DNA of 64,000 bases from an uncultured Gaiellaceae bacterium (lineage in GTDB: Bacteria > Actinomycetota > Thermoleophilia > Gaiellales > Gaiellaceae): NCBI GenBank assembly GCA_963820695.1, contig CAWGAP010000001.1:147087-211086 (forward strand), in the 5' to 3' direction. Below, one piece after another: positions 5,665 to 45,720 of the stretch. Each line of letters starts with the position of its first letter. Position 1 is the stretch's first letter. A program made the position numbers and the translations under genes. The notes under the pieces are model-generated. The model ran no database searches. It worked only from the letters and a program-made list of their open reading frames with translations, and was not told the DNA's origin.

Positions 5665-5675
5665 CTCGTCCTCCT

Positions 5676-14423: not shown

Positions 14424-15317
14424 ATGACCCCCGTCCGGACGACAGCCCGAGGCTTGTTCCTCACCGTGAGCGCCTTCCTGCTCGCAGCGGGGACGGCGGC
14501 AGCGTCCCCGTCGGGACAGGTGCCACGACTCGTCTTCCCGATCCTCGGAGCCGCGAGCTACACGGACGACTTCGGTGACCCGCGGGGCCAGGGAGCCCAC
14601 GAGGGGAACGACATCGTGGCGCCGCGACGCGCGCTCGTCCTCGCAGCCGAGGCGGGGACGGTCAAGTTCCACTCGACCTCAGCGCGGGCGGGCTGCATGC
14701 TCTACCTGGACGGCAAGAGCGGCACCGAGTACCTCTACGTCCACCTCAACAACGACCTCACGGACGGGAACGACAATCAGGGCAGGTGTGTCGCCGGTGT
14801 CTCGTACGCGAAGGGGCTGAAGGACGGCGCGAAGGTGGCGGCCGGCGAGGTGATCGCGTACAACGGCGACTCCGGGGACGCGGACGGGATCCACCCACAT
14901 CTCCACTTCGAGGTGCACCCGAACGGCGGCGGTGCGGTCAGTCCGTTCTCGCACCTGAACAAGGCGCGGCGGCTGCTCTTCTCCGCCCGCGAGGGAACGA
15001 CGTTCACGCTCGCACTCACGGGCAAGGTGGCGAACGCCGCCGGCGAGGACCTCCAGGTCACGGTCGACCAGGTACGCCAGTGGCCCGGCGGCCGCAAGGT
15101 CAAGCAGTCCGGCCAGAAGGTCGCCGTCACGGTGCCCGAGACGGCGTCGATCGAAGGGCTCGGTACCGCCGCCGTGGGGTCGGCCTACCCGGCGCTCGAG
15201 CTGCTGACGGTCGGACTGCCTGTCACGGTGTGGACGTCGCCGGCGAAGGTCACGCCGGCCGCGCTCTTCGGCGCCAAGGGAGCGCTCGCCGCCTCCCGCG
15301 TCGTCGTCCGGCCGTAA
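14424..15317 (+). CDS. Secreted M23 family metallopeptidase
   Basis: 297 aa with a signal peptide (LFLTVSAFLLAAGTAAA). The M23 motifs are HEGNDIVAP and GIHPHLHFEVHPNGG. Confidence 0.85.
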   Translation: MTPVRTTARGLFLTVSAFLLAAGTAAASPSGQVPRLVFPILGAASYTDDFGDPRGQGAHEGNDIVAPRRALVLAAEAGTVKFHSTSARAGCMLYLDGKSGTEYLYVHLNNDLTDGNDNQGRCVAGVSYAKGLKDGAKVAAGEVIAYNGDSGDADGIHPHLHFEVHPNGGGAVSPFSHLNKARRLLFSAREGTTFTLALTGKVANAAGEDLQVTVDQVRQWPGGRKVKQSGQKVAVTVPETASIEGLGTAAVGSAYPALELLTVGLPVTVWTSPAKVTPAALFGAKGALAASRVVVRP

Positions 15318-22368: not shown

Positions 22369-25300
22369 CCTCACCTCAGGCGCCAACGCGGCTCCTCACC
22401 GCCACGATCCAGGACGCCGCGGGCAACACCGTCACCGCCGACAGCACCACCGTCGTGGCCTTCGCGAAGCAGTCGGGCGCCGGCACGGTCAGCGGCACCG
22501 GCAATGCAACCGCCGCCAGCGGCGTCGCCACGAAGACGGTCACCGGCGTGCTCGTCGGCTCCGTGACGATGGAGGCGACGGCCGGCGGGCTCACGACCGG
22601 CACCCTCGGCGCCTTCACCGTCGTCCACGGAGCAGCGGCCAGATCGCGCTGACCGGCTCGACCGGCGACCTGACCGCGGGCGCTACGCGGGTGCTGACTG
22701 CGACGCTTCAGGACGCGGCCGGCAACACGGTCACGTCGGACAACTCGACGGTGGTCGCGTTCGCGAAGGCATCCGGCGCGGGCACCGTCACCGGCACCGG
22801 CAACGCCACGGCGTCGAGCGGGATCGCATCGAAGACGATCACCGGCGCACTCGTCGGTTCCGTGACGATGGAAGCGACCTCTGCCGGGCTGACGACGGGC
22901 ACGCTCGGCGCCTTCACCGTCGTCCACGGCGCCGCCACGCAGATCCAGCTGACCGGCTCGACGGCCGACCTCACCTCAGGAGCGACCCGGGTGCTGACGG
23001 CGACGATCCAGGACGCCGCCGGCAATACGGTCACCTCCGACAACTCGACCGTCGTCGCCTTCGCCAAGGCCTCCGGCGCCGGCACCATCAGCGGCACCGG
23101 CAACGCGACCGCCTCCAGCGGCGTCGCCACCAAGACGATCACCGGTGTGCTCGCCGGCTCCGTCACGATGGAAGCGACCTCGGCCGGCCTGACGACCGGC
23201 ACGCTCGGCGCCTTCACCGTCGTCCACGGCGCCGCCACCCAGATCGCGCTCACCGGCGCGACGGCCAACCTCACCTCCGGCACGACGCGCCTGCTAACGG
23301 CCACGATCCAGGACGCCGCCGGCAACACCGTCACCGCCGACAACACCACCGTCGTCGCCTTCACCAAGCAGTCGGGCGCCGGCACCGTCAGCGGCACCGG
23401 CAACGCCACCGCCTCCAGCGGCATCGCCACCAAGACCATCACCGGCGTGCTCGCCGGCTCCGTCACGATGGAAGCGACGTCGGCCGGTCTGACGACAGGC
23501 ACGCTGGGTGCGTTCACCGTCGTCCACGGTTCGGCCGCGGACATCATCCTGACCGGCTCGACGGCCGACCTGACCTCCGGTGCGACCCGCGTCCTCACAG
23601 CCACGCTCAAGGACGCCGCCGGCAACACCGTCACCTCCGACAACACCACGGTCGTCGCCTTCGCCAAGGCCTCCGGCGCCGGCACCGCCACCGGGACCGG
23701 CAACGCGACCGCCTCGAGCGGCGTCGCCACGAAGACGATCACCGGCGCGCTCGTGGGCTCGGTCACCATGGAAGCCACAGCGGCCGGACTGACGACCGGC
23801 ACGCTCGGCGGCTTCACCGTCGTTCACGGCGCCGCCGCCCAGATCGCGCTCAGCGGCTCCACCGCCAACCTCACCTCCGGCACGACGCGGGTGCTGACGG
23901 CGACTCTCCAGGACGCTGCGGGCAACACCGTTACCTCCGACAGCTCGACCGTCGTCGCCTTCGCCAAGCAGTCGGGTGCCGGCACTGTCAGCGGGACGGG
24001 CAATGCCACCGCGTCGAGCGGCGTCGCCACCAAGACGGTCACCGGCGTTCTCGCCGGCTCGGTTACGCTGGAAGCGACGTCGGCCGGTCTGACGACTGGC
24101 ACGCTCGGCGCGTTCACCGTCGTCCACGGTCCGGCGGCGGACATCATCCTGACCGGCTCGACCGCCGATCTGACCTCCGGTGCGACCCGCGTCCTCACGG
24201 CCACGCTCAAGGACGCGGCCGGCAACACCGTCATCTCGGACAACTCGACCGTGGTCGCTTTCGCCAAGGCCTCGGGCGCCGGCACCGTCACCGGCGCCGG
24301 CAATGCCACGGCGTCGAGTGGGATCGCGACGAAGACGGTGACAGGCGCCCTCGTCGGCTCGGTGACGATGCAGGCGACCTCGGCCGGGCTCACGACCGGC
24401 ACGCTCGGCGCCTTCACCGTCGTCCACGGCGCCGCGACCCAGATCCAGCTCACGGGCTCGACGGCCGACCTCACCTCCGGCACGACCCGGGTGCTGACGG
24501 CGACGATCCAGGACGCCGCCGGCAACACCGTCACCGCCGACAGCTCCACCGTCGTCGCCTTCGCCAAGGCCTCCGGCGCCGGCACCGTCAGCGGCACCGG
24601 CAACGCGACCGCCTCCAGCGGCGTCGCCACGAAGACCATCGCCGGTGTGCTCGCCGGCTCCGTCACGATGGAAGCGACGTCGGCCGGTCTGACGACCGGC
24701 ACGCTCGGCGCCTTCACCGTCGTCCACGGCGCCGCCACGCAGATCCAGCTGACCGGCGCGACGGCCAACCTCACCTCCGGCTCGAATCGGGTGCTGACAG
24801 CGACGATCCAAGACGCCGCCGGCAACACCGTCACCTCCGACAACTCAACCATCGTCGCCTTCACCAAGCAGTCGGGCGCCGGCACCGTCAGCGGCACCGG
24901 CAACGCCACCGCCTCGAGCGGCGTCGCCACCAAGACGATCACCGGCGTGCTCGCCGGCTCCGTCACGATGGATGCGACCGCCGGCGGGCTCACCACCGGC
25001 ACGCTCGGCGCCTTCAACGTCGTCCACGGACCGGCCGCCGACATCGTCCTCACCGGCTCGACCGCCGACCTGACCTCCGGTGCGAGCCGCGTCCTCACGG
25101 CCACGCTCACGGACGCCGCCGGCAACACCGTTACCGCCGACAGCTCCACCGTCGTCGCCTTCGCCAAGGCCTCGGGCGCCGGCACCGTCACCGGAACCGG
25201 CAACGCCACCGCCTCCGCGGCGTCGCCACGAAGACGATCACCGGCGCACTCGTCGGCTCCGTGACGATCGAAGCGACCTCGGCAGGTCTGACGACCGGGA

Positions 25301-28300
25301 CACTCGGAGCCTTCACCGTCGTCCACGGCGCCGCCGCCCAGATCGCGCTCGCAGGCTCGACGGCCGACCTCACAGCAGGCGCGACGCGCCTGCTGACGGC
25401 GACTGTCCAGGACGCGGCCGGCAACACCGTCACCGCGGACAACTCGACAGTGGTCGCCTTCACCAAGGCCTCGGGCGCCGGCACGGTCGGCGGGACGGGC
25501 AATGCCACCGCCTCCAGCGGCGTCGCCACCAAGACCGTCACCGGCGTCCTCGCCGGCTCGGTGACAATGGAGGCGACCGCGGCTGGTCTGACGACCGGCA
25601 CGCTCGGCTCCTTCACCGTCGTCCACGGTCCGGCCGCCGAACGTCCTGACCGGCTCGACCGCCGACCTGACCTCCGGTGTGAGCCGCGTCCTCACGGCCA
25701 CGCTCACGGACGCCGCCGGCAACACCGTCACCACAGACAACTCCACCGTCGTCGCCTTCGCCAAGGCCTCCGGCGCCGGCACCGTCAGCAGGCACTGGCA
25801 ACGCCACCGCTTCCGCAGGTGTCGCGACGAAGACGATCACCGGTCAACTCATCGGCTCCGTGACGATCGAAGCGACCTCGGCAGGTCTGACGACCGGCAC
25901 GCTCGGAGCCTTCACCGTCGTCCACGGCGCCGCCGCCCAGATCGCGCTCGCAGGCTCGACGGCCGACCTCACCTCCGGCGCGACCCGCCTGCTGACGGCC
26001 ACGATCCAGGACGCCGCCGGCAACACCGTCACCGCCGACAGCTCCACCGTCGTCGCCTTCGCCAAGGCCTCGGGTGCAGGCACCGTCAGCGGAACGGGCA
26101 GCGCGACCGCCTCCAGCGGCGTCGCCACCAAGACCGTCACCGGCGTGCCTCGTCGGCTCGGTCACGATGGAGGCGACCGCCGGCGGACTCACCACCGGCA
26201 CCCTCGGCGCCTTCACCGTCGTCCACGGTGCCGCCACCCAGATCGCGCTTTCGGGCGCGACCGCCGACCTGACCTCGGGCGCTACGCGGGTGCTCACGGC
26301 GACGATCCAGGACGCCGCCGGCAACACGGTCACGTCGGACAACTCGACGGTGGTCGCGTTCGCGAAGGCATCCGGCGCGGGCACCGTCACCGGCACCGGC
26401 AACGCCACGGCGTCGAGCGGGATCGCATCGAAGACGATCACCGGCGCACTCGTCGGTTCCGTGACGATGGAGGCGACCTCTGCCGGGCTGACGACGGGCA
26501 CGCTCGGCGCCTTCACCGTCGTCCACGGCGCCGCCACGCAGATCCAGCTGACCGGCTCGACGGCCGACCTCACCTCCGGCACGACCCGGGTGCTGACGGC
26601 CACGATCCAGGACGCCGCCGGCAACACCGTCACCGCCGACAACTCCACCGTCGTCGCCTTCGCCAAGGCCTCCGGCGCCGGCACCGTCAGCGGCACCGGC
26701 AACGCGACCGCCTCCAGCGGCGTCGCCACCAAGACGATCACCGGTGTGCTCGCCGGCTCCGTCACGATGGAAGCGACGTCGGCCGGTCTGACGACCGGCA
26801 CGCTCGGCGCCTTCACCGTCGTCCACGGCGCCGCCACCCAGATCCAGCTGACCGGCTCGACGGCCAACCTCACCTCCGGCTCGAATCGGGTGCTGACAGC
26901 GACGATCCAGGACGCCGCCGGCAACACCGTCACCGCCGACAACTCAACCATCGTCGCCTTCACCAAGCAGTCGGGCGCCGGCACCGTCAGCGGCACCGGC
27001 AACGCCACCGCCGCCAGCGGCGTCGCCACCAAGACGATCACCGCCGTCCTCGCCGGCCCCGTCACGATGGAGGCTACGGCCGCCGGGCTCACCACCGGCA
27101 CCCTCGGCGCCTTCACCGTCGCCCACGGCCCCGGCGCGCAGATCGAGCTGACCCACTCCGGCTCAACGGCCTCGGGCGACAATCACACGCTCACAGCCAC
27201 GATCAAGGACGCCGCCGGCAACACGGCCACGGGCGACAGCGCGACCCTCGTTGCCTTCGCGAAGACCGGCGGCCCCGGCACGGTCACCGGGCTCGGGAAT
27301 GCCACCGCCTCGAGCGGCGTCGCGACCAAGGTCGTCGTCAACGCGGCGTCCGGCCAGATCGACCTCGACGCGCAGGCCGCCGGCCTCTCGACCGGAACCG
27401 CCAGCTACGTGATCGGCGCGGGCGCCGCCTCGACGGCGACCAGCACGATCAATGCCTCCCCCACCTCGATCGTCGCCAACGGCTCCAGCACGAGCGCGAT
27501 CACGGTCCAGCTCAAGGACGCGGCCGGCAACAACCTCACGGGCTCGGGCGGCACGGTCGCGCTCGGCCTGACCGGCACGGGCTCGCTCTCCGCCGTCACC
27601 GACAACGGCGACGGCACCTACTCGGCCACGCTCACCGCCCCGACCACGGTCGGCAGCGCGACCGTCACCGGCACGCTCAACGCCGCTGCGCTCGCCGCCA
27701 CGGCCGGCGTCACCTATACGCACGGCCCGGCGACCCAGATCACGCTGACCGAGAGCGGCTCGACCGTCGCGGGGAATGCCCATACGCTCACCGCAACGAT
27801 CAAGGACGCGAACGGGAACACGGTCACGAGCGACAACTCGACGGTCGTCGCGTTCGCGAAGACGGGCGGCGCCGGCACCGTCACCGGTCTCGGCAACGCA
27901 ACCGCGTCCAGCGGCGTCGCGACGAAGAACGTCAGCAACATGCTCGCGGGTCAGATCGACCTCGACGCACAGGCGGCGGGACTCACCGCCGGGACGGCGA
28001 CCTACACGATCGACCTCGGCCCGGTGAGCTCGGCCTCGTCCGATTCGACGGTCGGCGCCGCACCGGCGACGGTCTACGCGAACGGCACCGACTCGGCGAC
28101 GATCACCGTCACGCTCCGCGACGTGGGCGGCAACGGGATTCCAGGCAAGACCGTCTCCCTCGCCCAGGGCTCCGGTAGCTCGACGATCACGGGCGGCGGC
28201 AGCACGAACGCGGCCGGCGTCGTCACCTTCTCCGTCTCCGATGCGACCGTCGAGACCGTCACGTACACGGCGACCGACACGACCGACTCGATCACGCTCG

Positions 28301-31300
28301 CCGACGACGCCAGCGTCGACTTCACCTTCCAGGACACGACGCCGCCGACGAACACGATCACGCTCGGCAGCGCCACGGGCGCCTGGCTCAGCGGCACGAC
28401 GCTCTACTACAACGGCGCGGCAGGCGGCTCCTTCACGCTTTCGAGCGCGGTCGCGGACGGCGGCTCCGGTCCCGCGTCCGCCGCGTACCCGGCGGTGACG
28501 CAGTCCGGCTGGACGCACGGCGTCGAAACCGTCTCCACCCCGGCCGGCGGCCCCTACGTCTCGAGCGCGTTCTCGTTCAACGCCGGCTCGAGCGGCAACT
28601 TCACGCACGCCGTCACGGCGAGCGACGCCTGGACGCCGCCGAACACGAGCGTGACGACGCTGAACCTGACCGACGACTCGGCCGCGCCGGCGGCAAGCAT
28701 CCTCTGCAACGCCGCTGCCTGCTCCGCCGGCTGGTACCTGAGCTCGCCCGTCTCGGTCACTCTGGCCGCTCCCGACGCCGGCGCCGGCCTCGACCAGATC
28801 CGCTACACGATCGACGGCACCGACCCGACGATCCTCACCGGCAACGTCTACAGCGGCGCGTTCGCCGTCGCCGCCGAGGGCGTGACGACGGTCAAGTACC
28901 GCGCCTTCGACCGGATCGGGAACGACACCGGCGTGCTGACGCAGGCGGTCCGGATCGACACGATCGCACCGAACACGACGATCGACTCCGCGCCCGCGGC
29001 CGCCACGCAGGACACGACACCGACGTTCGTCTTCAGTTCGCCCGAAGCAGGCACGAGCTTCCAGGTGCGCGTCGACGGCGGCTCGTGGACGTCCGAGACG
29101 AGCCCGCTCTCGCTCGGCCCGCTCGCCGAGAGCACCTACACGTTCGAGGTGCGCGCAACCGACGTCGCCGGCAACGTCGACGCGACCCCGGCCTCGTTCA
29201 TCTTCACGGTCGACACGACGCCCGCGAACACGACGATCACGTCCTCCCCGCCGGCCGCGTCGAGCTCGACGGGCGCAAGCTTCTCGTTCACTGCCTCCGA
29301 TGCAGGCCCGGGCTTCGAATGCCGGCTCGACGGCGGCGCCTTCGCCGACTGCTCGAGCCCGAAGTCATACGTCGGTCTGACGGAGGCCCCGCACACCTTC
29401 GAGGTTCGCGCCGAGGACGCCGCCGGCAACCTCGACCCGACGCCCGCCACCCACGCCTGGACGGTCGACCTGACCGCGCCGGACACGTCGTTCCTCTCCA
29501 CCCCTGCGAATCCGAGCGCGAACGCGACGCCGACGTTCGGCCTCGGCGTCGACCGAGACGCCTTCGACGTTCGAGTGCGACCTCGACGGCGGCGGCTGGT
29601 CGCCCTGCTCGACGCCGTTCACGACGCCGTCCCTCGGCGACGGCTCGCACACCCTGAAGGCGCGCGCCACCGACGCCGCCGGGAACACGGATGCCTCCGA
29701 GGTCACGTTCCCCTGGCTCGTCGATGCGACCGCGCCGACCGGGTCGGTCACCTCGCCCGCGAACGGCGCCGACATCGGCGGCACGGTCGTGCTCGCGAGC
29801 AACTCGGCCGATACCGGCGGCTCCGGCGTCGCGACCGTCGTCTTCCAGCGCTCGCCCGCCGGCGTCGGCAGCTGGACGAGCCAGGCGGCGAGCTGGGACA
29901 CGACGGCACAGGCGGACGGCGACTACGACCTGCGCGTCGTGACCACCGACAACGCCGGCAACTCGTTCACCTCAGCGGTGATCACGGTCACCGTCGACAA
30001 CACGGATCCGTCCCTCTCGGTCGTCGCGCCGAACCCCGTCAATCTCGCGACCGCCGATCCGGCCACCGTCTCCGCGACCGCGACCGACGACGGCAGCGGC
30101 ATCGCCAACGTCCGCTTCGACCAGTGCGCCGAGGACTCCCCCGCGTGCGTCTCCGACTCGTGGGTGCTGCTCGGCGTCGACACGGGCGCGCCCTACCAGG
30201 CCTCGTGGCCGATTCCCTCCGACGGCCCGCGCCTCCTGCGGGTGCGCGCGACCGACAACGCCGGCAGGCAGAAGACCGAGCTCGTCCTGATCACGATCGA
30301 CCGGGTCCGGCCGACCGGCTCGCTGACCGCTCCGGCCGCCGGCGCGAACCTGCGCGGCGCTGCCGTCGCGCTCGCGGCCACGGCCTCCGACACCGCCCCG
30401 GGCGCCGTCAACACCGTCACCTTCCAGCGCTCGCCCGCCGGCGCCGGCACCTGGACGGACATCTCGATCGACGCGTCGGCGCCGTACACCGGCACGCTCG
30501 ACACGACCGGGCTCGCCGACGGCCTCTACGACCTGCGCGTCTTCACGACCGACGCGGCCGGCAACGCCGAGGCCGCACCCGCGACGACGCAGGTGCGCGT
30601 CGACAACACGCTCCCGACCGGCGCCGTCACCGCTCCGGCCGCAGGCGCGAACGTCCGCGGCACGATCGCGCTCAGCAGCAACTCCGCCGATGCCGGCTCC
30701 GGCGTCGCGACCGTCCAGTTCCAGCGCTCCCCCGCCGGCGCCGGCAGCTGGACGAACCAGGCCGCCAGCTTCGACACCACCGCAGTCGCCGACGGCCAGT
30801 ACGACCTCCGCGTCACCACCACCGACAACGCCGGCAACGCCTTCACCTCCACCGCGATCACGATCCGCGTCGACAACACGCTCCCGACCGGCGCCGTCAC
30901 CGCTCCGGCCGCAGGCGCGAACGTCCGCGGCACGATCGCGCTCAGCAGCAACTCCGCCGATGCCGGCTCCGGCGTCGCGACCGTCCAGTTCCAGCGCTCC
31001 CCCGCCGGCGCCGGCAGCTGGACGAACCAGGCCGCCAGCTTCGACACCACCGCCGTCGCCGACGGCCAATACGACCTCCGCGTCACCACCACCGACAACG
31101 CCGGCAACGCCTTCACCTCCACCGCGATCACGATCCGCGTCGACAACACGCTCCCGACCGGCTCGGTCACGGCGCCCGCGAACGGCACCGAGATCGGCGT
31201 GGCGCCGGTGGCGCTGACGAGCGACTCGGCCGACGCGGGCGGCTCGGGCGTCGCGACGATCGTCTTCGAGCGCAGCCCGGCCGGCGCAGGCACGTGGACG

Positions 31301-34300
31301 GCCACGGCCGCGAGCTGGAACACGGCGAGCGGTCCCGACGCCGTCACCGACGGCAGCTACGACCTGCGCGTCAAGACCACGGACAACGCGGGCAACGTCT
31401 TCACCTCGGCCGCGATCACCGTGCTCGTCGACCACACCGCGCCGACGACGTCGGCTTCGCTCGCACCGGGCACGCCGAGCAACGCGCCGGTCACCGTCAG
31501 CTTCTCCGCGAACGACGGCACCGGCTCGGGCGTCAGCGTCATCTCGTACCGCGTCGACGGCGGCAGCCTCCAGCTCGGCGCCGCGGTCGTCGTGCCCGCT
31601 CCGGGCGACCACTCGAACGACGGCTCGCACCTGGTCGAGTTCTTCGCGACCGACGAGGTCGGCAACGTCGAGGCGCTGAAGAACGTCACGGTCGTGATCG
31701 ACACGACGGCGCCGAACGGCTCCGGCGGCGACCCGGGCGACTACCTGCGCGGGATCGCGAACCTGAGCTACGCGACGGGCGCGACCGACGTCAGCTCGGT
31801 GCAGTTCCAGTTCTCGCCCGCGGGCGCCGGCGCGTGGTCGAACGTCGGCGGCGCCGACATCGCGCCGCCGTACGAGGCCGCGTGGAACACGACGCTCGTC
31901 GCCGACGGGCCGTACGACCTGCGCGCCGTCGTCACCGACACGACCGGCAACGTCGCCAACACGCTCCTCCCCGGCCTGCCGAAGACGGTCGACAACACCG
32001 CGCCCGCCGGCTCGGTGACGGCGCCTGCCGGCGGCGCCTACGTCTCCGGCTCGATCGCGGTCGACGCGAACGCGAGCGACGGCGCCGTTCCCCCTGCGTC
32101 GGGCGTCTCGGCCGTCCGCTTCGAGGTCAAGCCCGCCGGCGCCGGCGCGTACAGCGTCTTCGGCACGCAGACGGCGCCGGTCGTCGGCTCGACCTACCGG
32201 CAGACGCTGACGACGACGGCGCTCGCGGACGGTCTCGCCGAGCTGCGGGTCGTCGTCACGGACGTCGCCGGCAACGAGACGACCTCGGCCATGAGCACGA
32301 TCAACGTCGACAACGACGCGCCCGTCGTCACGCTCGACGATCCCGGTGCGGCCGTCGGCGCGAGCGTCAACCTGACCGCATCGTCGTCGGCCGATACGAC
32401 AGACGTCACCTTCCGCTACCGCCCGGTCGGCAACCTCGGCGCCGGCACGGCGATCGGCTCCGACTCGACGGCCCCGTTCGGTGTCACCTGGTCGACGCCT
32501 CCGGCCGCCGAGCAGCAGTGGGAGCTGATCGCGGTCGCGACCGACGGCGGCGGCAACGTCACCACGAGCGCACCGCGCGTCGTCCTCGTCGACCGCACGC
32601 AGCCGACCGGCAGCGTCACCGCTCCCGCGACCGGCGCGACCGTCGGCGGCCCGGCCGTCGCGCTCGGTGCGATCGCCGCGGACACCGCGCGGCTCGGGCG
32701 TGACGCTCGTCGAGTGGCAGGTCAAGGAGTTCGGGAGCGGCAGCTTCAACACCGTCGCGAGCGACACCACCGCTCCGTACGACGGGAGCTGGAACTCGAC
32801 CCCGGCACCCGACGGCGCCACCGAGATCCGCGCCGTGATCACCGATGCGGCCGGCAACGTCCGCACGACCGCCGTGATCCCGGTCACGGTCGACTCGACC
32901 GGCCCGAGCGTGACGCTGACCGACCCCGGCGCCGTGGTCTCGGGCACCGTCGTCGCTCGAGCGCGACGACGGGCGGCGGCGCAATCCGCGTCCAGTTCTC
33001 GGTCAGCCCGGCGAACGCCGGCACGTGGACGCAGATCGCCGAGGACACGACCGCACCCTTCGGAGCTCCGTTCGACACTGCTGCTCTCGCCGACGGCCTC
33101 TACGACCTGCGCGCGATCGGCTTCGACGGCCTCGGCAATCCGTCCACCCCCTCGATCCGCGAGGACGTCCGCCTCGACAACACCGCCCCGCAGCTCGTCT
33201 CGGCCGCGCCCGCCGACGGCTCGGTCTCCACCGTCCGCGAACCAGATCGTGCTGACTGCGTCCGAGCCGGTGACCGCTCCCGGCGCGCTGCTCGACGGAG
33301 CCGCCGCGCCCGCGCCCTCGATCTCCGGCAACCAGCTCACGTTCGCGACCGGCGCCCTCGCCGACGGGCTCCACGTCCTCTCGGGCGAGCTCGAGGACGC
33401 GAGCGGCACGCGCGTCCCCTTCCGGGTCGCCGTCACGATCGAGAGCACGCCGTCGTCCGACCCGCCGCCGGTCGAGCGGAGCATCACCTCGTCCGGCGAC
33501 TGGACGCTGACCGTCCCGGGCGGCCTCGTCACCGTGCGGATGCCGCAGAGCGCGTGGCCGACTCCCCCGACGCCGCAGGACTACATCCTCGTCCTCCGCG
33601 TCGACGCAGGCCCTGGCGGCGGCGGCTTCGCGCCGGGAACGCAGATCGTCGACGTGACCGCTCGGTGGGCGCTCGCCGGCACGTACGTGACCGAGTTCAA
33701 CGCCCCGATCGAGATCGTCTTCTCGAACCCGTCCGGGACCGCGACGGTCCCGGGCCACTCGCCCGACGCGTCGACGTGGCAGGCGATCCCGATGCTCACC
33801 GGGCCGCTCCCGGCGGCGCAGCGCGACGGCTTCACGCGCTCCGGCTCCGACGTCCACGTCTGGACGCGCCACCTGACCTACTTCGGCCTCATGCTCGACG
33901 ACGGCGCCCCGACCGCGCCGCGCGACCTCGCGGGCGTGCTCGCCGACGACGGCCTGACGCTGCGCTGGATCCCGGGCACGGACTCGAGCGGGCAGATCGG
34001 GAACGTGATGCTGTACGTCAACGGCGAGAGCTACCGCGAGTTCGGTCCGACCGAGTTCGAGGCCAAGCTGGGCGCGTTCGCCGCCGGCGACACGCGCAGC
34101 TTCACGCTTGCCCAGAAGGATGCCGCCGGCAACGTGAGTCCCCAGACCGCCCCGCTCCGCGCCGTCCCCGCGCTCGTCGGCATGTCCCTCGCCGAGGCGA
34201 GCGCAGCGCTCGGCGCCGCCGGCTTCACGGTCGGCACCGTCCGCGAAGCCGCTGTCGCGACCGTTCCGCCGGGCACCGTCGTCGAACCGGCCACCATCCA

Positions 34301-35027
34301 GTTCGCCCTGGCGTCGAGCCCGATCGACCTCGTCGTCTCCCGCGGCACGACCGCGCCGCAGACCCGGCTCGCCTTCTCGGTCGCCGGCTCGAAGCGGATC
34401 GAGCTCAAGAAGCAGACGACGATCGGCGTTCGGATCAAGGTGTCGAAGCCCGCGGACGTCACGGTCACGCTCAGGAACGCGAAGAACCGGCGTCTCCACA
34501 CATGGAAGCTGCGGGTCAAGGCCGGCGCGACCGTGGTCAAGCTGCGGCTGCCCGCGCAGATCCGCCGCCCGGGCGCGTACAAGCTGACGTGGGTCGCCAA
34601 CTCCGGCACCGAGACGGTCAGCCGCACGATCAGGCTCACGCTCGTCGCGCCGGCGTCCCAGGTGAGGCCGAAGCGGGACGAGACCGAGGTCGTGCTCGCC
34701 GGCGAGACGCCGCCGGGCGAAGCGCTCCGGCCCGGTCAGGACGGCATGCCGCGCCGCGTCAGCTCGGCAAACGGCACCGATCAGACCTTCGATCACATCG
34801 CCTCGACGCCCCACGAGGTCGGGGTCGTCGTCGTCGATGCAGATGCGTTCGGTACCCGCTTCGTCGCCGATCTTCGCACGGTCTTCCCGAAGGTGCGCGT
34901 GATCGCGATCTCGCGCGAGCCTGCGCGCCGCGTGCTGGCGGTCCGTGCCGGCGCGACGCTTGCGCTCCCGCGCAACACGACCGCCCGGCAGCTCGCGAAG
35001 GCGATCGCGCTCGTCGCGGGCCGCTAG
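19975..35027 (+). CDS. Giant (~5,000 codon) cell-surface Ig-like repeat protein (adhesin or S-layer-like), interrupted by at least 11 frameshifts as assembled
   Basis: One continuous coding signal hops between frames, with junctions near 22348, 22384, 22636, 25218, 25640, 25792, 26147, 29540, 32688, 32950 and 33237. Each junction falls inside a repeat unit whose sister units read straight through. Domain order: basic N-terminus plus TM (RVHVRAVLALVALLAVFLAGAAL); ~570-aa unknown domain; 18 x 100-aa Ig-like units; invasin/Big_1-like domains; a chitobiase-C/Fn3-associated-like segment (IRYTIDGTDPT); about 13 x 90-100-aa Ig-like units; FN3; PASTA; Ig-like; receiver-like tail. The start is ambiguous: ATG 19975, 19960 or 19915. 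Confidence 0.8.
21724..27129 (+). repeat. Tandem array of 18 x 300 bp (100-aa Ig-like units) inside the giant gene
   Basis: The unit is AAQIALTGSTA(N/D)LTSGATRVLTATIQDAAGNTVTSDNSTVVAFAK(A/Q)SGAGTVSGTGNATASSGVATKTITGVLAGSVTMEATSAGLTTGTLGAFTVVHG. The ttcaccgtcgtccacgg landmark recurs every 300 bp from about 22011 to about 27111. Confidence 0.95.
22637..25264 (+). CDS. Giant surface protein, fragment (300-bp units 4-12)
   Basis: This is the frame of ORF 22691..25264. It is entered through a missing c at about 22636 (gcggcc-agatc) and left through a missing a at about 25218 (gcctcc-gcggcgtc). Confidence 0.75.
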   Translation, partial: GQIALTGSTGDLTAGATRVLTATLQDAAGNTVTSDNSTVVAFAKASGAGTVTGTGNATASSGIASKTITGALVGSVTMEATSAGLTTGTLGAFTVVHGAATQIQLTGSTADLTSGATRVLTATIQDAAGNTVTSDNSTVVAFAKASGAGTISGTGNATASSGVATKTITGVLAGSVTMEATSAGLTTGTLGAFTVVHGAATQIALTGATANLTSGTTRLLTATIQDAAGNTVTADNTTVVAFTKQSGAGTVSGTGNATASSGIATKTITGVLAGSVTMEATSAGLTTGTLGAFTVVHGSAADIILTGSTADLTSGATRVLTATLKDAAGNTVTSDNTTVVAFAKASGAGTATGTGNATASSGVATKTITGALVGSVTMEATAAGLTTGTLGGFTVVHGAAAQIALSGSTANLTSGTTRVLTATLQDAAGNTVTSDSSTVVAFAKQSGAGTVSGTGNATASSGVATKTVTGVLAGSVTLEATSAGLTTGTLGAFTVVHGPAADIILTGSTADLTSGATRVLTATLKDAAGNTVISDNSTVVAFAKASGAGTVTGAGNATASSGIATKTVTGALVGSVTMQATSAGLTTGTLGAFTVVHGAATQIQLTGSTADLTSGTTRVLTATIQDAAGNTVTADSSTVVAFAKASGAGTVSGTGNATASSGVATKTIAGVLAGSVTMEATSAGLTTGTLGAFTVVHGAATQIQLTGATANLTSGSNRVLTATIQDAAGNTVTSDNSTIVAFTKQSGAGTVSGTGNATASSGVATKTITGVLAGSVTMDATAGGLTTGTLGAFNVVHGPAADIVLTGSTADLTSGASRVLTATLTDAAGNTVTADSSTVVAFAKASGAGTVTGTGNATASAASPRRRSPAHSSAP
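26148..29545 (+). CDS. Giant surface protein, fragment (units 16-18, Big_1-like domains, first Ig-like FECxLDGG domains)
   Basis: This is the first part of ORF 26074..32703. Beyond about 29545 that ORF stays open but reads as Arg-rich nonsense, and the real sequence continues in the frame of ORF 29789..35269. Confidence 0.75.
29545..32690 (+). CDS. Giant surface protein, fragment (about 11 Ig-like VDNT.PTG units)
   Basis: This is the frame of ORF 29789..35269, reading TETPSTFECDLDGGGWSPC...VDRTQPTGSVTAPATGATVGGPAVALGAIAAD. It is left through an extra c at about 32688. Confidence 0.75.
29715..33250 (+). repeat. Second array of about 13 diverged 270-300-bp Ig-like units
   Basis: Units open with (V/I)D.T.P(T/S)(G)..(T/V).P..GA...G and close with YDLR(V/A)..TD.AGN. 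Example: VDNTLPTGAVTAPAAGANVRGTIALSSNSADAGSGVATVQFQRSPAGAGSWTNQAASFDTTAVADGQYDLRVTTTDNAGNAFTSTAITIR. Confidence 0.85.
30601..31140 (+). repeat. Near-identical 2 x 270-bp tandem duplication within the second array
   Basis: Compared base by base, 30601-30870 and 30871-31140 differ at only about 2 positions (cgcagtcgcc...ggccagt versus cgccgtcgcc...ggccaat). Confidence 0.9.
33238..35027 (+). CDS. Giant surface protein, C-terminal fragment (FN3, PASTA, Ig-like, receiver-like tail)
   Basis: This is the frame of ORF 32667..35027. FN3: APTAPRDLAGVLADDGLTLRWIPGTDSSGQIGNVMLYVNG. PASTA: VPALVGMSLAEASAALGAAGFTVGTVREAAVATVPPGTVVEPATIQFALASSPIDLVVSRG. Confidence 0.75.
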
Positions 35028-35771
35028 ACCGCGGCCTGCACGGCGAACGTCGACGCCGACGACCACGAGCACGGCGCCGAGCGCCAGCCGCAGCACGTCT
35101 TCGTCGATCCGCCCGGTCGCTTTGGCCCCGAGCCAACCGCCCGGGATCGCGCCGGCCAGCCCCGCGAGCAGGAGCGGCCAGTCGACACCGAGCGCGCCCG
35201 CGTGAGCCGCGAAGCCCGCGACGCCGAGCAGGAAGCCGACGACGAGATTCGTGCCCGCGGCGCGCTTGACGTCCATTCCGACGCCGCGAACGAGCGCGGG
35301 CATCCGCAGCGTGCCGAGGATGACGCCGACGGCGCCGCCGAGCGCGCCGATGCCGAAGCCGGACGCGACCGCCGGCCAGAGCCGCAGGCGCTCCCGTGTG
35401 CGTGGCTGCACCGGCCGGAGCGCAAGGTCGATCCCGCTCCAGACGAGGACTGCGGCGATCCCTGCGTAGAGCAGCTGCTCCGAGACGTCGTCGGCCAGGA
35501 GCGCGCCGAGGATCGCCCCCGCAACCGACGGCGGCGCCATCCAGGCGACCACGCGCCAGTCGACGCGGCGCTCGCGCGCGTGGCGGATCGCTCCGGCACC
35601 GGCGGATGCGGCCGAGATCGCGATGTTCGTCCCGGCGGCGGCGAGCGGGCTGCCCGCCAGCGCCACGAGCAACGGCAGCCGCAGCGTTCCGAGCACGAGC
35701 CCGAGCATCGAGCCGACGTACCCGGCAACGAACGAGCCTGCGAGCGCTAGCGCGAGCTCCCAGGCTTCCAC
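35024..35771 (-). CDS. TSUP (TauE/SafE) family membrane transporter, probable frameshift in the last ~10 codons
   Basis: The GTG start gives [25 protein letters not shown]... with two TauE half-repeats (AAGTNIAISAASA and AAGTNLVVGFLLG). The main frame (ORF 33003..35771) has no stop codon and runs on antisense to the giant gene. Shifting frame at about 35055 gives ...VVVGVD(V)FAVQAAV with a stop at 35024-35026. Confidence 0.75.
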
Positions 35772-40501: not shown

Positions 40502-41659
40502 ATGAAGCGCCTGCTCACCGGACTGCTCCTCGCTGCCGCGCTCGTCGGCACGGCGACGGCGGCGCAGCCCGGCCGAGTGCTCGCAGTCGAGTGGCAGGCG
40601 GGCGGCGGCAAGCTCCGCTGGGTCTCGCCGACGACCCTGCGTCCCGTCGGGCCTGCGGTGCTGAACGTCGGCGGAGCACCGGCGGATATCGCGGCCGTCT
40701 CGCCGGGCGGCGCGGTGGCTGCGATCGGCGGCGGTGCCGAGGGACGGCTGCGCTTCGTCCGGCTCGGCACGCTCCGCCAGGAAGGGCTGCTGTGGCTCGG
40801 CGAGGGCTCGGTCTTCAAGGGCGTCTGGGTTGCACCCCGGCGACTCGTCGTCCTGCTCGGCGGCGCCCGCCCAGACGTCGTCGTGATCGACCCGACGACG
40901 CGGAAGGTACTCCGCCGCGAGGCGCTCGCCGGGACCGCAATGGGCGCGATCGCGGTCGACGGCAGGGTGTTGACGCTGCTCGCTCGACGCGACGGGATCG
41001 GGCCGGTGCAACTCGCCGTGATCGGCGGGGACGGCTCCGTCCGGACCGTGGCGATCCCGGGAATCACCGCGGGTGTGACGGCTCCGGCGACGCCCAGCGG
41101 CGTCGCGAGGTTCGCCTCGCCCGGGCTCGCCGCGCAGGGCTCTCGCGCCGTCGTGCTCGGCCGTGAGAGCCTCGTCGAGGTCGATCTCGAGACGTTGGTC
41201 GTGCGCGAGCAGCGGCTCGACACCCGGACGACCGCGCGGGCGACAAAGCTCGTCGAGGGCTGGGGTCGCAGTGCGGTCTGGCTGCAAGGAGGCACGATCG
41301 CGTACTCGGGCTGGTCCGCCGAGGCGGAGAAGCGAGCCACGATCGGCGTCCGGGTCGCCGATGTCGACACGGGCGCGACCGGCGTGCTCGACGCGAAGGC
41401 GAGCACGATGCAGCGCGCCGGCTCGACGCTCATCGTCCACGGCGACGGCCCGCTCCGAGGCTTCCGGCTCGACGGCACGCTCCGCTTCGAGCTGCTCGGC
41501 GGCACCGACACCGGCTACGTCCAGGTCGCCGGCGGTTACGCCTACGTCGGCAGCGGCAACAGCACGCGGTTCAGTGTCGTCGACGTGCAGGCCGGGAGAG
41601 TCGTGGGGGTCGCAGGGACGGCGAAGCCGACCGTCGTGCTCGCGCCGCCCTCGTGGTGA
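40502..41659 (+). CDS. Hypothetical secreted protein
   Basis: 385 aa from ATG 40502, with signal peptide MKRLLTGLLLAAALVGTATAAQP. The sequence is beta-rich and G/V/R-rich, and I recognise no family. Confidence 0.6.
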   Translation: MKRLLTGLLLAAALVGTATAAQPGRVLAVEWQAGGGKLRWVSPTTLRPVGPAVLNVGGAPADIAAVSPGGAVAAIGGGAEGRLRFVRLGTLRQEGLLWLGEGSVFKGVWVAPRRLVVLLGGARPDVVVIDPTTRKVLRREALAGTAMGAIAVDGRVLTLLARRDGIGPVQLAVIGGDGSVRTVAIPGITAGVTAPATPSGVARFASPGLAAQGSRAVVLGRESLVEVDLETLVVREQRLDTRTTARATKLVEGWGRSAVWLQGGTIAYSGWSAEAEKRATIGVRVADVDTGATGVLDAKASTMQRAGSTLIVHGDGPLRGFRLDGTLRFELLGGTDTGYVQVAGGYAYVGSGNSTRFSVVDVQAGRVVGVAGTAKPTVVLAPPSW

Positions 41660-42162
41660 CCGTGCGGCTGGCCGGCGCGGGCGACGCCGACGCGATCGGC
41701 CGGGTCCAGGTCGAGACCTGGCGCGCCGCCTATACCGGCCTGATGCCCGACGAGGCGGTCGCAGCCTTCGACGTCGAGTCGAGACAGCGGCAGTGGCGGG
41801 AATGGCTCGGCGCCACGCCACGCCCGGGCGGCGCGACGTTCGTCGTCGAGGACGGCGGCGAGGTCGTCGGCTTCGCGAGCGTCGGCGCCTCCTGGGACGA
41901 GGAGGCCGAGGCGGAGGCCGAGCTGTATTCGATCTACCTGCACCCGTCGTGCTGGGATCGCGGGATCGGGCGGGCGCTGCTGCAGCGGGCGGAGGAGTCG
42001 ATGCGGTCGTCGGGCTTTCGCCATGCGGTCCTCTGGGTGATGGACGGCAACGACCGCGCAATCCGGTTCTACGAGACCGCCGGCTGGGAGGCGGACGGCC
42101 GCAAGGACGAGGAGTTCCAGGGTGCCACGGTGACCGAGCTGCGCTACCGCAAGCGCCTGTAG
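41653..42162 (+). CDS. GNAT family N-acetyltransferase
   Basis: 169 aa with LYSIYLHPSCWDRGIGRALL (Q/RxxGxG/A loop) and RAIRFYETAGW. It overlaps the upstream gene by 7 nt. Confidence 0.85.
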   Translation: MVTVRLAGAGDADAIGRVQVETWRAAYTGLMPDEAVAAFDVESRQRQWREWLGATPRPGGATFVVEDGGEVVGFASVGASWDEEAEAEAELYSIYLHPSCWDRGIGRALLQRAEESMRSSGFRHAVLWVMDGNDRAIRFYETAGWEADGRKDEEFQGATVTELRYRKRL

Positions 42163-42626
42163 CTCCGCGCCTTCCGGACGAGGAAGAAGAGCCCGGCCCC
42201 GAGCACGAGCACGCCGACGACGATCCCGCCCCAGTTGAACGGCGGCAGCGAGTTGTCGTCGACGTTCGTCAGCGCCAGGAAGTCGGCCGGGTCGACCTGC
42301 GAGCAGAGGCTCGACCGCCAGACGGCTCCGTCGCGCGTCAGCAGCAGGCCGACCCGCTGGCCGACCGCGAGCTCGAGACCGCACGCCGGCCCGCCCGACG
42401 GTGACACCACCTCCGCGCGGTTCTCGATCTCGCCCTTGTACACCTGCTCGACGCGAAAGCGATACGTCGCCGTGTCGCCGCTGACCAGCCGCTCGAGCAC
42501 CGTCCCGATCATCGCGCCGTCCGCAGCGGGCAGGTCGCGCTCGAGGTCGACCGGCCTGCACGTGCAGGCGTAGGCCTCGGCGGCAGCGACGAGCGAGAGC
42601 AGGATCAGGGCGGCGAGCTTCCGCAT
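42144..42626 (-). CDS. Membrane-anchored extracytoplasmic TIMP-like (NTR/OB-fold) protein
   Basis: 160 aa from the internal Met of ORF 42144..42848. The signal peptide MRKLAALILLSLVAAAEAYA is followed directly by CTCRPV. The protein contains ATYRFRVEQVYKG, VVSPSGGPACG and WRSSLCSQV, and ends in a C-terminal TM plus a basic tail (IVVGVLVLGAGLFFLVRKARSYRRLR). It starts 10 nt after the upstream gene. Confidence 0.65.
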   Translation of the reverse strand: MRKLAALILLSLVAAAEAYACTCRPVDLERDLPAADGAMIGTVLERLVSGDTATYRFRVEQVYKGEIENRAEVVSPSGGPACGLELAVGQRVGLLLTRDGAVWRSSLCSQVDPADFLALTNVDDNSLPPFNWGGIVVGVLVLGAGLFFLVRKARSYRRLR

Positions 42627-42636
42627 CGCCGCCAGA

Positions 42637-43221
42637 CTAGTGGCGTCGGGCCTGGCGCCTTGCTGCCAAGAACAGGACGACGGCAGCTCCCAGCGCGCCC
42701 ACGGCGGCGTTCCAGCGCAGCTCGTACGCGTGGTGCTCTGCGCGCGGATCCGGGCTCGCCCGCTGCCAGTCCTCCAGGAACGGCCGCACCGGGCGCACGT
42801 TCGCAAGCGACACCGCGGAGCTGGCGATCGCGAGCGCGAGAAAGACACCAGCAGCCGCGGTGCCGAGCCGGTGCCGGCGAACGACGAGCACAGCGGCGGT
42901 CAGCGCCGCGAGCGCCGTCGGCAGCGCGAAGAGGAGCGCCGGCAGCCAGCTGTCGTAGCCGGCGTGGCGGACCTCGACGAAGACTTCGTGGTTGCCGAAC
43001 GTGCCGCCGGCGACGCCGACCAGGACGCCGATCGCGGCGAGGCGAGCGAGCCCGGGCGGCGAGAGCAGGATCACACGAACGCCCCCGAGTGCCCAGCGGA
43101 GGCTCTCGACGCCGCCGCGCGTCTGCTCGAGCTCGGCCAGGATCGCCTCGCCCCACTCGCGGCGGTCGCGGGGCAGCAGCAGGATCGCGGTGCGCAGCAG
43201 GATGCGCGCGAGCCGCTTCAT
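42637..43221 (-). CDS. Membrane protein partner of PadR (permease-prefix-like N-terminus)
   Basis: 194 aa from the internal Met, MKRLARILLRTAILLLPRDRREWGEAILAELEQ, followed by 4 TM segments. The ATG overlaps the PadR stop codon (ATGA). Confidence 0.7.
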   Translation of the reverse strand: MKRLARILLRTAILLLPRDRREWGEAILAELEQTRGGVESLRWALGGVRVILLSPPGLARLAAIGVLVGVAGGTFGNHEVFVEVRHAGYDSWLPALLFALPTALAALTAAVLVVRRHRLGTAAAGVFLALAIASSAVSLANVRPVRPFLEDWQRASPDPRAEHHAYELRWNAAVGALGAAVVLFLAARRQARRH

Positions 43222-43530
43222 GCCGGCGCCGCCGCCGCGGCTGCCGTCGACGGCCGCGCCGCCGCGAGCCGCGCCTCTGCGTATGTGACTCCTTCGCCCG
43301 TGAGGCGGTAGCTGCGCCGCCGGGGACCGCTCGCCGGCTCGTCCCAACGCGCCTCCAGCAGACCGCGACCGCTCAGCCGGATCAGGATCGGGTAGAGCGT
43401 CCCGGACGGAATCCCCGTCTCGCGGGAGAGGTCGTAGCCGTAGCGCCAGGCGCCGCCGACGAAGGCGCGGAAGACGGCGAGGGTCTGCGGCGAGGTGTCG
43501 GGCCGGCGTGCGATAGCCGAAAGTCTACAT
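43218..43530 (-). CDS. PadR family transcriptional regulator (missing from the ORF track)
   Basis: The reverse strand reads (M)RLSAIARRPDTSPQTLAVFRAFVGGAWRYGYDLSRETGIPSGTLYPILIRLSGRGLLEARWDEPASGPRRRSYRLTGEGVTYAEARL, a typical PadR winged helix. There is no in-frame start codon as assembled. ATG 43528-43530 becomes in frame if the single base at 43527 is an insertion. Confidence 0.75.
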
Positions 43531-43547
43531 AGATAGAGTTTGGCTGT

Positions 43548-44699
<1,152 letters not shown>

Positions 44700-44710
44700 G
44701 CTCTGAATCT

Positions 44711-45720
44711 ACCGGGCGTACGTCTCGTCCGGCCGCAATCGCGCCGCGAACGCGGTCAGCACCTCGAACGCAGGCCTCGAGGTCGCTCAGCTGGACGATC
44801 TCGATCGGCGAGTGCATGTTGCGGAGCGGGATCGAGACGAGCCCCGTCGGGATCCCCTCCCGGGAGGCGAAGGTCACGTCCGCGTCCGTGTAGGTCTTGG
44901 CGCCCGCCTCGATCGTGTGGTCGATCCCTTCCTCGCGCGCGGCCTCGACGAGGAGCTCGAAGACGCGCGGGTTGACCGCCGGCCCGCGGAAGATCGCGGC
45001 GCCGCCTCCGAGCGAGTGGTGACCGCCCGTGGCGGGGTCGTCGCCGGGAACGTCGGTCGCGTAGGTGACGTCGATCGCGATCGCGACGTCCGGGCGCAGG
45101 CCGTGCGCGGCCGCCATCGCGCCGTGAGCGCCAAGCTCCTCCTGCGCGGCGGCGACGACGGCGACGTTCGCCCCCTCCGCGCGCCGCAGCGTCTCGAGCG
45201 CGACGTAGACGCCGGCGCGGTTGTCGAGCGTCCGGGACGCCAGCCGTCCGTGGGCGAGCTCGACAGGCGGCGCGTCGAGCACCATCGGGTCGCCGGGCGC
45301 GACGAGCGAGCGCGCCTCGGCCCCGTCCTTCGCCCCGATGTCGACGTAGAGCTGGCCCCACTCGACTTTCTCGTTGTCCTTCACCTTCCGCGCGATCACA
45401 CCGGGGACGGCGCCGTCCTTCGTCCGGATCTCGACCCGCTGGCCGTACGCGACGTTCGCGCGCCAGTGGCCGAGCTGGTGTACGGCGATCAGCGCGTCGT
45501 CGGCGATGTGCGCGACGGCGGCGCCGATCACGTCCAGGTGCGCGAAGAGCGCGAGCAGTGGCCCGTCGCCGCGGCGGCGCGCGATCAGATTGCCGACGGA
45601 GTCGGACTCGACCTCGGCCACCTCACCGACCGAAGCGCGGACGACGTCGAAGGCGAGGTGCTCGTGCCCGGAGGGCCCGTGCGCACGCAACAGGCGGTCG
45701 AGGAGCTCCGGGACGGCCAT
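44711..45720 (-). CDS. M42 family (glutamyl/FrvX-type) aminopeptidase, frameshift near the 3' end
   Basis: The family motifs are FAHLDVIG, TLDNRAGV, AAQEELG and IPLRNMHSPIEIV. The main frame runs on without a stop codon into antisense thiolase (ORF 43525..45720). Shifting frame at about 44765 gives ...LEACV(R)VLTAFAARLRPDETYAR with TAG at 44711-44713. Confidence 0.8.

Follow-up and report, generated by a model that had tools for sequence, protein, structure and literature searches.

TIMP-like ectodomains in Actinomycetota and an optional PadR–membrane protein module at a Gaiellaceae locus

TIMPs are treated as a metazoan family in reviews (PMC4860685, PMC9409782), and the authors who described the TIMP-like protein Tim of Listeria found no literature record of bacterial TIMP-like proteins (PMC8235301). 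Does a gene from an uncultured Gaiellaceae bacterium encode a relative of these inhibitors and, if so, does it belong to a conserved regulated system? The gene lies in a stretch of 64,000 nucleotides (contig CAWGAP010000001.1 of assembly GCA_963820695.1, positions 147,087 to 211,086), which we call the window and to which all positions refer unless another locus is named. Here, three tightly packed minus-strand genes are flanked by a thiolase gene (43548-44699) and by a GNAT gene that converges on them (41653-42162). They encode a PadR-family winged helix-turn-helix regulator (43218..43514; 98 residues), a membrane protein that is the partner of PadR (gene 2, 42637..43221; 194 residues) and a protein with a signal peptide, a TIMP N-domain-like ectodomain, a linker, a transmembrane anchor and a basic tail (gene 3, 42144..42626; 160 residues from an ATG start). 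A first-pass annotation, made from the sequence alone, had proposed that these genes form a PadR-controlled system whose last product resembles animal TIMPs. The TIMP-like reading of gene 3 is the interesting part of this proposal and is well supported; the tight three-gene operon is a lineage-specific, frequently lost arrangement rather than a conserved system.

Sequence and fold relationship of gene 3 to animal TIMPs

The gene 3 protein begins MRKLAALILLSLVAAAEAYA|CTCRPV..., where the bar marks the predicted signal peptidase I cut before Cys21. The signal peptide (residues 1-20; 42567..42626, minus strand) consists of MRK, a hydrophobic core and AYA, and the position of AYA directly before CTCRPV, to which the first-pass annotation had drawn attention, indeed reads as an A-x-A site. 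Next comes the ectodomain that begins with C-T-C (residues 21-120; 42267..42566, minus strand), identified as a TIMP N-domain-like NTR/OB-fold by profile searches, hhalign, AlphaFold and Foldseek. It is followed by a juxtamembrane linker recognized from the orthologue alignment (residues 121-131; 42234..42266, minus strand) that reads V-x-D-N-x-L-P-P-x-N, with W-G-G next. The C-terminal hydrophobic helix (residues 132-150) and basic cytoplasmic tail RKARSYRRLR (residues 151-160; together 42147..42233, minus strand) are as had been claimed, and a helix spans residues 132-159 in the structural model. Judging from its sequence, the product is predicted to be a type I, N-out membrane protein. It contains exactly four cysteines (positions 21, 23, 82 and 108), all of which are invariant among 31 Gaiellaceae orthologues.

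Single-sequence searches with gene 3 (Pfam, NCBIfam, and phmmer against PDB sequences) matched nothing, and therefore profiles were needed. Homologues numbered 432, and those with names come from Gaiellaceae genomes assembled from metagenomes. When a HMMER profile of 19 ectodomains was run against all PDB sequences, TIMP-2 (E 9.7e-5) and TIMP-3 (E 9e-4) were retrieved and no others below 0.01, with alignments to both that are full length and start from Cys1 on both sides. A profile made from 38 diverse members again retrieved TIMP-2 from the PDB sequences (E 1.3e-4). In the reverse search, the Pfam TIMP model PF00965 was the sole recurrent family, matching 8 of the 38 member ectodomains at E ≤1 (best 6.5e-5), and the full-length relative P0134 scored 18.3 bits to this model, under its gathering threshold of 23.1 bits. 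Alignment of the family with TIMP-2/3 by hhalign gave a probability of 96.1% and an E value of 3.6e-9 over 107 columns, with all four cysteines aligned. Specifically, Cys21, Cys23, Cys82 and Cys108 (positions 1, 3, 62 and 88 of the mature protein) align with C1, C3, C72 and C101 of TIMP-2, which would allow the pairing that had been suggested for them.

The predicted structure leads to the same result. AlphaFold modeled the whole protein with a predicted local distance difference test score (pLDDT) of 83.8 and the ectodomain with one of 95.4 (predicted template modeling score, pTM, 0.86). The best Foldseek matches to this model in the PDB are N-TIMP-1 (query template modeling score, TMq, 0.79) and N-TIMP-3 (TMq 0.78), at a probability of 1.00 and a root-mean-square deviation of 2.3-3.0 Å, and the top 50 matches are all NTR modules (TIMP, agrin NtA, PCOLCE, C3/C4/C5 and meteorin). 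Thus, three independent tests agree, namely the HMMER profile against PDB sequences, hhalign and Foldseek, and the TIMP resemblance that had been noticed goes well beyond chance and is borne out at the levels of both profile and fold. We conclude with high confidence that the gene 3 ectodomain shares true, though distant, homology with the inhibitory N-domain of animal TIMPs.

The features held in common with animal TIMPs (TIMP-1 to -4; MEROPS I35, PF00965) are the OB/NTR fold, with TMq values of up to 0.79, sequence homology at the profile level from residue 1, cysteines equivalent to the C1-C72 and C3-C101 pairs of TIMP-2, and a Cys-Ser/Thr-Cys mature N-terminus directly after the signal peptide, which for the gene 3 family is a prediction. 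The segment before the third cysteine reads SSAVCGVSL in TIMP-2 and GGPACGLEL in gene 3. In contrast to animal TIMPs, gene 3 is bacterial (Actinomycetota) and scores below the Pfam cutoff. It has the cysteines for two of the three TIMP N-domain disulfides; the equivalent of C13-C124 is absent, and Pro, Ala or Leu occupies the position of TIMP C13. The TIMP C-terminal domain, of about 65 residues with three more disulfides, is also absent, and gene 3 carries the 11-residue linker, transmembrane helix and basic tail instead. More broadly, the family differs from animal TIMPs in having a C-terminal transmembrane anchor or, in its long forms, a fusion to a domain of about 300 residues. Gene 3 therefore falls short of a formal TIMP in three respects, as it scores under the Pfam cutoff and lacks both the third N-domain disulfide and the C-terminal domain.

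The linker has features of its own. Residues V122, D124, N125, L127, P128, N131, G133 and G134 are invariant among the 31 orthologues, and residues 122-127 have a pLDDT below 50 in the model, such that the linker is predicted to be disordered. The motif V-x-D-N-x-L-P-P-x-N-W-G-G (residues 122-134; 42225-42263, minus strand) is not conserved across the wider family. It might mark a site of shedding, direct sorting or mediate an interaction. We rejected the reading of the protein as a sortase substrate, since the gene 3 motif is LPPFNWGG rather than LPXTG and the LPXTG_anchor model (TIGR01167) scored 12.0 bits against a cutoff of 15.9, spanning only the transmembrane helix and tail.

The wider family, its N-terminus and possible inhibition

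In an exhaustive profile search, the family amounted to at least 1,634 clusters (50% identity) at E ≤1e-3, of which 358 reach E ≤1e-10. It is not represented by any Pfam or NCBIfam model, the precomputed Pfam fields of its members are all empty except for one DUF4131 entry, and cluster members are all labelled "hypothetical protein" or are nameless. Those members with named source organisms belong to Gaiellaceae and Acidimicrobiales. Two architectures are evident. Short forms have about 160-220 residues and carry a hydrophobic C-terminal tail in 46 of 71 cases, as scored by a hydropathy cutoff. Long forms have about 420-580 residues, in which the N-terminal TIMP-like domain precedes an uncharacterised domain of about 300 residues that no Pfam or NCBIfam model matched, sometimes with a transmembrane anchor. 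Examples of long forms are P0129, P0134, P0137, P0140, P0156, P0193 and P0242 (loci L032, L035 and L063), some of which have a Pro-rich linker. Two distant members, one short (L039, 5704-6671) and one long (L063, 4040-5058), adjoin a UbiE-like methyltransferase gene and an open reading frame (ORF) of about 75-81 residues, a shared neighborhood that may be a coincidence.

The strongest family-wide signature is found at the N-terminus, for which statistics cover 141 representatives aligned from profile position 1. Cysteine occupies this position in all 141, and C-x-C is present in 140, so the conservation of the motif in homologues that the first-pass annotation had anticipated was indeed observed. 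Residue 2 is Ser in 129 representatives and Thr in 11. Upstream of Cys1, 134 representatives have Ala at -3 and 131 have it at -1, as is expected for an A-x-A signal peptidase site, whereas a strict lipobox is present in only three. Position -2 is variable and frequently bulky or charged, and -4 is frequently Pro, Asp or Glu. Because Cys1 and CxC are so uniformly retained, the A-x-A site is so frequent and the lipobox is so rare, we predict that mature proteins begin with Cys1 across the family.

This prediction matters because inhibition by TIMPs needs the free amine of Cys1, and a single added Ala abolishes it (PMC2871463). In the mechanism that we propose for gene 3, signal peptidase I would cut after A-Y-A and the mature protein would begin Cys1-Thr2-Cys3. 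Disulfides would link Cys1 to Cys62 and Cys3 to Cys88 (mature numbering), as equivalents of C1-C72 and C3-C101 in TIMP-2, and both would stiffen the N-terminal ridge. The rigid ridge could then wedge, in the fashion of TIMPs, into the active-site cleft of a zinc metalloprotease outside the cytoplasm, where the metal would be chelated by Cys1 through its free alpha-amino and carbonyl groups and the side chain of Ser/Thr2 would be directed toward S1′. The C-terminal helix would keep the inhibitor at the membrane surface, and the target protease would be encoded somewhere other than beside gene 3. With moderate confidence, we suggest from these sequence features that the gene 3 product may function as a TIMP-like metalloprotease inhibitor.

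Several observations weigh against this proposal. The gene 3 protein by itself has no match to PF00965 at E ≤10, and family members remain below the gathering cutoff of 23.1 bits. Both the third N-domain disulfide and the whole C-domain of TIMPs are missing from the gene 3 protein. No metalloprotease recurs beside family genes in the neighborhoods examined, and the metzincin motif HExxHxxGxx[H/D] is absent from plausible ORFs in 578 kb of fetched DNA that includes the window. An NTR fold with an N-terminal cysteine is also insufficient for inhibition, given that the NTR domain of PCPE-1, when engineered to start from its first Cys, had no inhibitory effect on the metzincins that were assayed (PMC2871463). 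With regard to regulation, the gene 2 protein matches none of the Pfam models for HAAS (DUF1700, DUF1129 and DUF1048).

The same PCPE-1 result speaks for the main rival explanation, which is possible if doubtful, wherein the ectodomain is a non-inhibitory NTR module that binds or scaffolds an envelope polymer or a partner, and CxC is kept solely for two structural disulfides. Such roles are known for NTR domains, as agrin NtA binds laminin and the NTR domain of PCPE-1 takes part in glycosaminoglycan-dependent stimulation of BMP-1, and the non-inhibitory agrin NtA, PCOLCE, C3/C4/C5 and meteorin modules are also strong Foldseek matches. The lack of a protease as a conserved neighbor is consistent with this explanation, and fusion to the ~300-residue domain in the long forms suits a recognition role. 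However, the family profiles select TIMPs and no other NTR protein, including agrin NtA, the PCOLCE NTR, complement C345C, the C-domains of netrin and sFRP, and meteorin. These modules have the same fold and are all extracellular, but they are mostly internal or C-terminal domains whose first cysteine is normally not a free mature N-terminus, and they generally are not protease inhibitors. In the gene 3 family, all 141 representatives have the predicted cleavage site directly ahead of Cys1, and 140 of these have Ser or Thr as residue 2. Because the TIMP mechanism predicts an exposed Cys1 and a structural disulfide does not, this N-terminus counts against a purely structural role for the cysteines. 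The ratio of nonsynonymous to synonymous substitution rates (dN/dS) is about 0.42-0.48 for the TIMP-like gene versus 0.10-0.15 for the thiolase gene, which fits a fairly fast-changing surface protein but is not diagnostic.

The PadR–membrane protein module and its neighborhood

Within the window, the physical arrangement is as the first-pass annotation described. The PadR stop codon TGA (43220-43218) overlaps the gene 2 ATG to give ATGA, and ORF coordinates place exactly 10 nt (42627-42636) between gene 2 and gene 3. Co-transcription of the three genes is plausible from this layout. We compared the region across 31 Gaiellaceae genome loci that carry a gene 3 orthologue. At 27 of them, the TIMP-like gene comes immediately after the thiolase gene, and neither PadR nor the membrane gene is present. 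Likewise, the gene for a 93%-identical relative (P0001) abuts the thiolase gene, with an 8-nt gap, in all 7 places listed. The order thiolase-PadR-membrane-TIMP-like is found in the window and at two other loci (L019 and L050), and the PadR-membrane-TIMP-like part is present on two short contigs (L029 and L049), where the contig end truncates the module. The closest genome relative (L001) lacks PadR, and its membrane gene (5612-5940) is reduced to a decayed fragment with an internal deletion, whose junction with the TIMP-like gene is unchanged; L001 thus shows the PadR-membrane module caught during loss.

Carriers of the module are scattered on a thiolase tree, and pairwise synonymous divergence (dS) is similar across the thiolase, PadR, membrane and TIMP-like genes. 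Because of these two findings and the remnant in L001, the simplest reading is that ancestral Gaiellaceae had the four-gene arrangement and that the PadR-membrane module was lost repeatedly. Recent horizontal insertion of the module is disfavored by the same evidence, namely dS values like those of the flanking genes, the patchy distribution on the thiolase tree and the L001 remnant.

The two parts of the arrangement also occur independently. Membrane-protein homologues at 14 metagenome loci have PadR directly upstream in all 14, and a TIMP-like gene is present at only two of these loci, both orthologous to the window locus. The remaining 12 pairs are more distant, and no TIMP-like gene lies within the DNA fetched around them. 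Conversely, five distant TIMP-like genes occur in unrelated settings (TetR, CorA/GreA, pyrimidine genes, RecO and methylmalonyl-CoA mutase), with no PadR neighbor at the distant TIMP-like genes examined. PadR and the membrane protein are thus a separate two-gene module and an optional add-on to the TIMP-like gene. Accordingly, the PadR-controlled three-gene system that had been proposed is physically present in the window, but the expectation that its gene order would be conserved does not hold at the 27 loci where thiolase abuts the TIMP-like gene, nor at L001, where the module has decayed.

These data bear on a second rival explanation, namely that the three gene products work as a single dedicated unit in which PadR controls the inhibitor and the membrane protein senses protease activity or envelope state. 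We consider this unlikely. The tight packing of the genes, with its overlap and short gap, speaks for it, as does the recurrence of the four-gene order in L019 and L050 and of its last three genes in L049 and L029. Likewise, a single conserved promoter-like element precedes PadR, whereas gene 3 has no predicted one of its own. The dS values are compatible with vertical co-inheritance, and therefore the linkage of PadR to the TIMP-like gene is old within Gaiellaceae. Nevertheless, 27 of 31 loci and the closest relatives have no such module although all keep the TIMP-like gene, the module is decaying in L001, no TIMP-like gene accompanies the 12 more distant PadR-membrane pairs in the DNA fetched, and no PadR adjoins the distant TIMP-like genes examined. 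Moreover, the window PadR lacks a canonical start codon. We prefer a scheme in which the PadR-membrane pair, with its own conserved candidate promoter and operator, would have resided between the thiolase and TIMP-like genes in ancestral Gaiellaceae. In the window, the pair could place the TIMP-like gene under the control of an envelope signal, but it would not be required for that gene.

The assignment of the regulator is clear, with a PF03551 score of 43.3 bits (cutoff 27; E 3.8e-11), although NCBIfam models of the PadR type match it only below their own cutoffs. Its start is less straightforward. The stretch delimited by the first-pass annotation runs to 43530, but the ATG there is out of frame and TAG follows immediately. 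From the thiolase stop codon (43550-43548) onward, the PadR frame is uninterrupted, yet nowhere does it offer ATG, GTG or TTG as a start, and ATC at 43514-43512 occupies the position of the GTG start used in L019 and L050. With dN/dS of about 0.10 on the window branch, PadR is under purifying selection, and we therefore reject the reading that it is an old pseudogene. It is possible that ATC serves as the start codon, that the start was lost very recently or that the base call is in error.

The intergenic element upstream of PadR (43515..43550, minus strand) is a candidate promoter and operator. It includes the promoter-like sequence TAGACA-17-TAGACT (43550..43522), which is the sole sigma-70-like site in 41900-43800, where 0.0 are expected. 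A 22-nt core, AAACTCTATCTATGTAGACTTT, is invariant among the window (43515-43550, minus strand), L019 (5010-5047) and L050 (1972-2008). This core holds the -10-like TAGACT and an imperfect palindrome, TCTAnnTAnnTAGA. The start codon (GTG in L019 and L050, ATC in the window) is only 7 nt past the -10 hexamer, and this spacing suggests that the PadR mRNA is leaderless.

The N-terminus of the gene 2 protein is a conserved helical, cytoplasmic segment (LPRDRREWGEAILAEL), after which come about four transmembrane helices, and the protein has no Pfam or NCBIfam match. Across homologues, the N-terminal motif LP.DRREWGEA.LAEL is conserved while the transmembrane parts vary. PadR repressors of adjacent membrane-protein genes are known (PMC6624303), and dyads of HAAS with PadR-like winged helix-turn-helix proteins have been proposed as alternatives to two-component systems (PMC11237479). 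The pair described here resembles the HAAS-PadR type, with a membrane sensor and a repressor, in that a standalone PadR is directly upstream (14 of 14 loci) of a membrane protein with a conserved N-terminal helical segment and a variable multi-transmembrane part. Membership in this type is only putative, however. The three HAAS models match neither the gene 2 protein nor four diverse homologues of it at E ≤5-10, the diagnostic GxP motif is not established in the gene 2 protein, and no PspC, Lia or Toastrack genes were seen nearby.

The outer neighbors of the TIMP-like gene are conserved. Upstream, the thiolase gene (43548..44699, minus strand) is assigned by Pfam Thiolase_N and Thiolase_C matches and is a conserved neighbor by synteny. 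Downstream, the convergent GNAT acetyltransferase gene (41653..42162, plus strand; Acetyltransf_1, E 5.8e-23) is likewise kept, and the 3′ ends of the two opposing genes share 19 nt (42144-42162), therefore leaving no space for a terminator between them. A 384-residue ORF (40505-41659, plus strand) with a signal-peptide-like N-terminus and no Pfam match adjoins the GNAT gene syntenically across Gaiellaceae. We examined this ORF as a relative of the C-terminal domain of the long forms and rejected it, as the score of 9.3 bits, obtained with high compositional bias, is not significant.

Genes for peptidases of the M23 (14424-15317, plus strand) and M48 (9840-10757, plus strand) families, which had been put forward as enzymes to assay against the ectodomain, were confirmed by Pfam. 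The window also carries an M42 gene (44710-45720, minus strand) that scores with Pfam as the aminopeptidase family, which is cytoplasmic. None of the three was retained as a conserved partner of the TIMP-like family, since no linkage exists elsewhere except for a Gaiellaceae-wide synteny of M42 with thiolase. About 290 nt upstream of the M48 gene is a gene for a 445-residue protein (8211-9548, plus strand) that matches DUF4389 in four separate stretches (E 2.2e-52). Lastly, the region from about 20000 to 35300 contains, on both strands, very long overlapping ORFs (up to 2,209 residues) with repetitive-looking translations in which VKAPSVPVV and VATPxEAVA recur, and it may encode giant surface proteins.

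Bacterial analogues and the place of the family

The four invariant cysteines could also serve other purposes. The gene 3 protein might bind Cu or Zn through its N-terminal Cys-x-Cys, perhaps joined by Cys82 and Cys108, or might shuttle disulfides on the external side of the membrane. Sequence cannot separate disulfides from metal ligands, and one Acidimicrobiales relative adjoins a CorA-family gene. We nonetheless regard this explanation as improbable. The cysteines correspond one-to-one with disulfide-bonded cysteines of TIMP-2/3, their number is even, as is expected for exported actinobacterial proteins with disulfides, no metal-handling neighbor recurs, and Foldseek gave no thioredoxin-like or cupredoxin-like fold. 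Least credible of all is a lipoprotein with Cys21 lipid-modified after cleavage by signal peptidase II, which would block the N-terminus and therefore make the TIMP mechanism impossible: a Cys directly after the signal peptide and the lipoprotein nature of Listeria Tim, the only described bacterial TIMP-like protein found (PMC8235301), favor it, but the site E-A-Y-A|C does not fit the lipobox [LVI][ASTVI][GAS]C, the family has Ala at -3, a variable -2 and frequently Pro, Asp or Glu at -4, a strict lipobox is as rare as noted above, and a C-terminal transmembrane anchor is already present.

Our literature search found only two bacterial analogues of a TIMP-like inhibitor, Tim and potempin A. 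Tim of Listeria monocytogenes, the partner of the metzincin Mtz, is bacterial, membrane-associated and envelope-linked, and has a predicted TIMP-like fold (PMC8235301). It is a lipoprotein with the lipobox LTAC, it resembles TIMPs in structure only, and it is always paired with a metzincin gene whose product cleaves Tim about 50 residues in (PMC8235301). By this description, the gene 3 family is set apart from Tim by its sequence-level homology to TIMPs, its N-terminal CxC, its lack of a lipobox and the absence of an adjacent metzincin. Potempin A of Tannerella forsythia is a membrane-anchored OB-fold inhibitor of an MMP-like metalloprotease (PMC9890683). This outer-membrane lipoprotein is described as otherwise structurally unrelated to TIMPs, it acts by a "bilobal" mechanism rather than by N-terminal zinc chelation, and its gene lies immediately upstream of the gene for its target protease (PMC9890683). 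No published bacterial family with sequence-level TIMP homology was found, leaving aside superfamily annotations of the InterPro type.

What is new, then, is a bacterial family of at least 1,634 clusters that keeps a predicted free Cys1-Ser/Thr2-Cys3 on an NTR fold, the key feature of inhibition by TIMPs. As a tentative and more far-reaching proposal, Actinomycetota may harbor a large, ancient family of true TIMP homologues that act as endogenous, membrane-tethered, Cys1-chelating inhibitors of the bacteria's own extracytoplasmic zinc metalloproteases, that came under PadR-sensor control in ancestral Gaiellaceae, and that is the sister or source of metazoan TIMPs. If the bacterial family were such a sister or source, the TIMP mechanism would therefore predate animals. 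The family would let the origin of TIMPs be tested by phylogeny, and it offers small two-disulfide scaffolds for inhibitor engineering. For the bacteria themselves, it suggests a layer of metalloprotease control at the cell surface of actinobacteria that has so far gone unrecognised.

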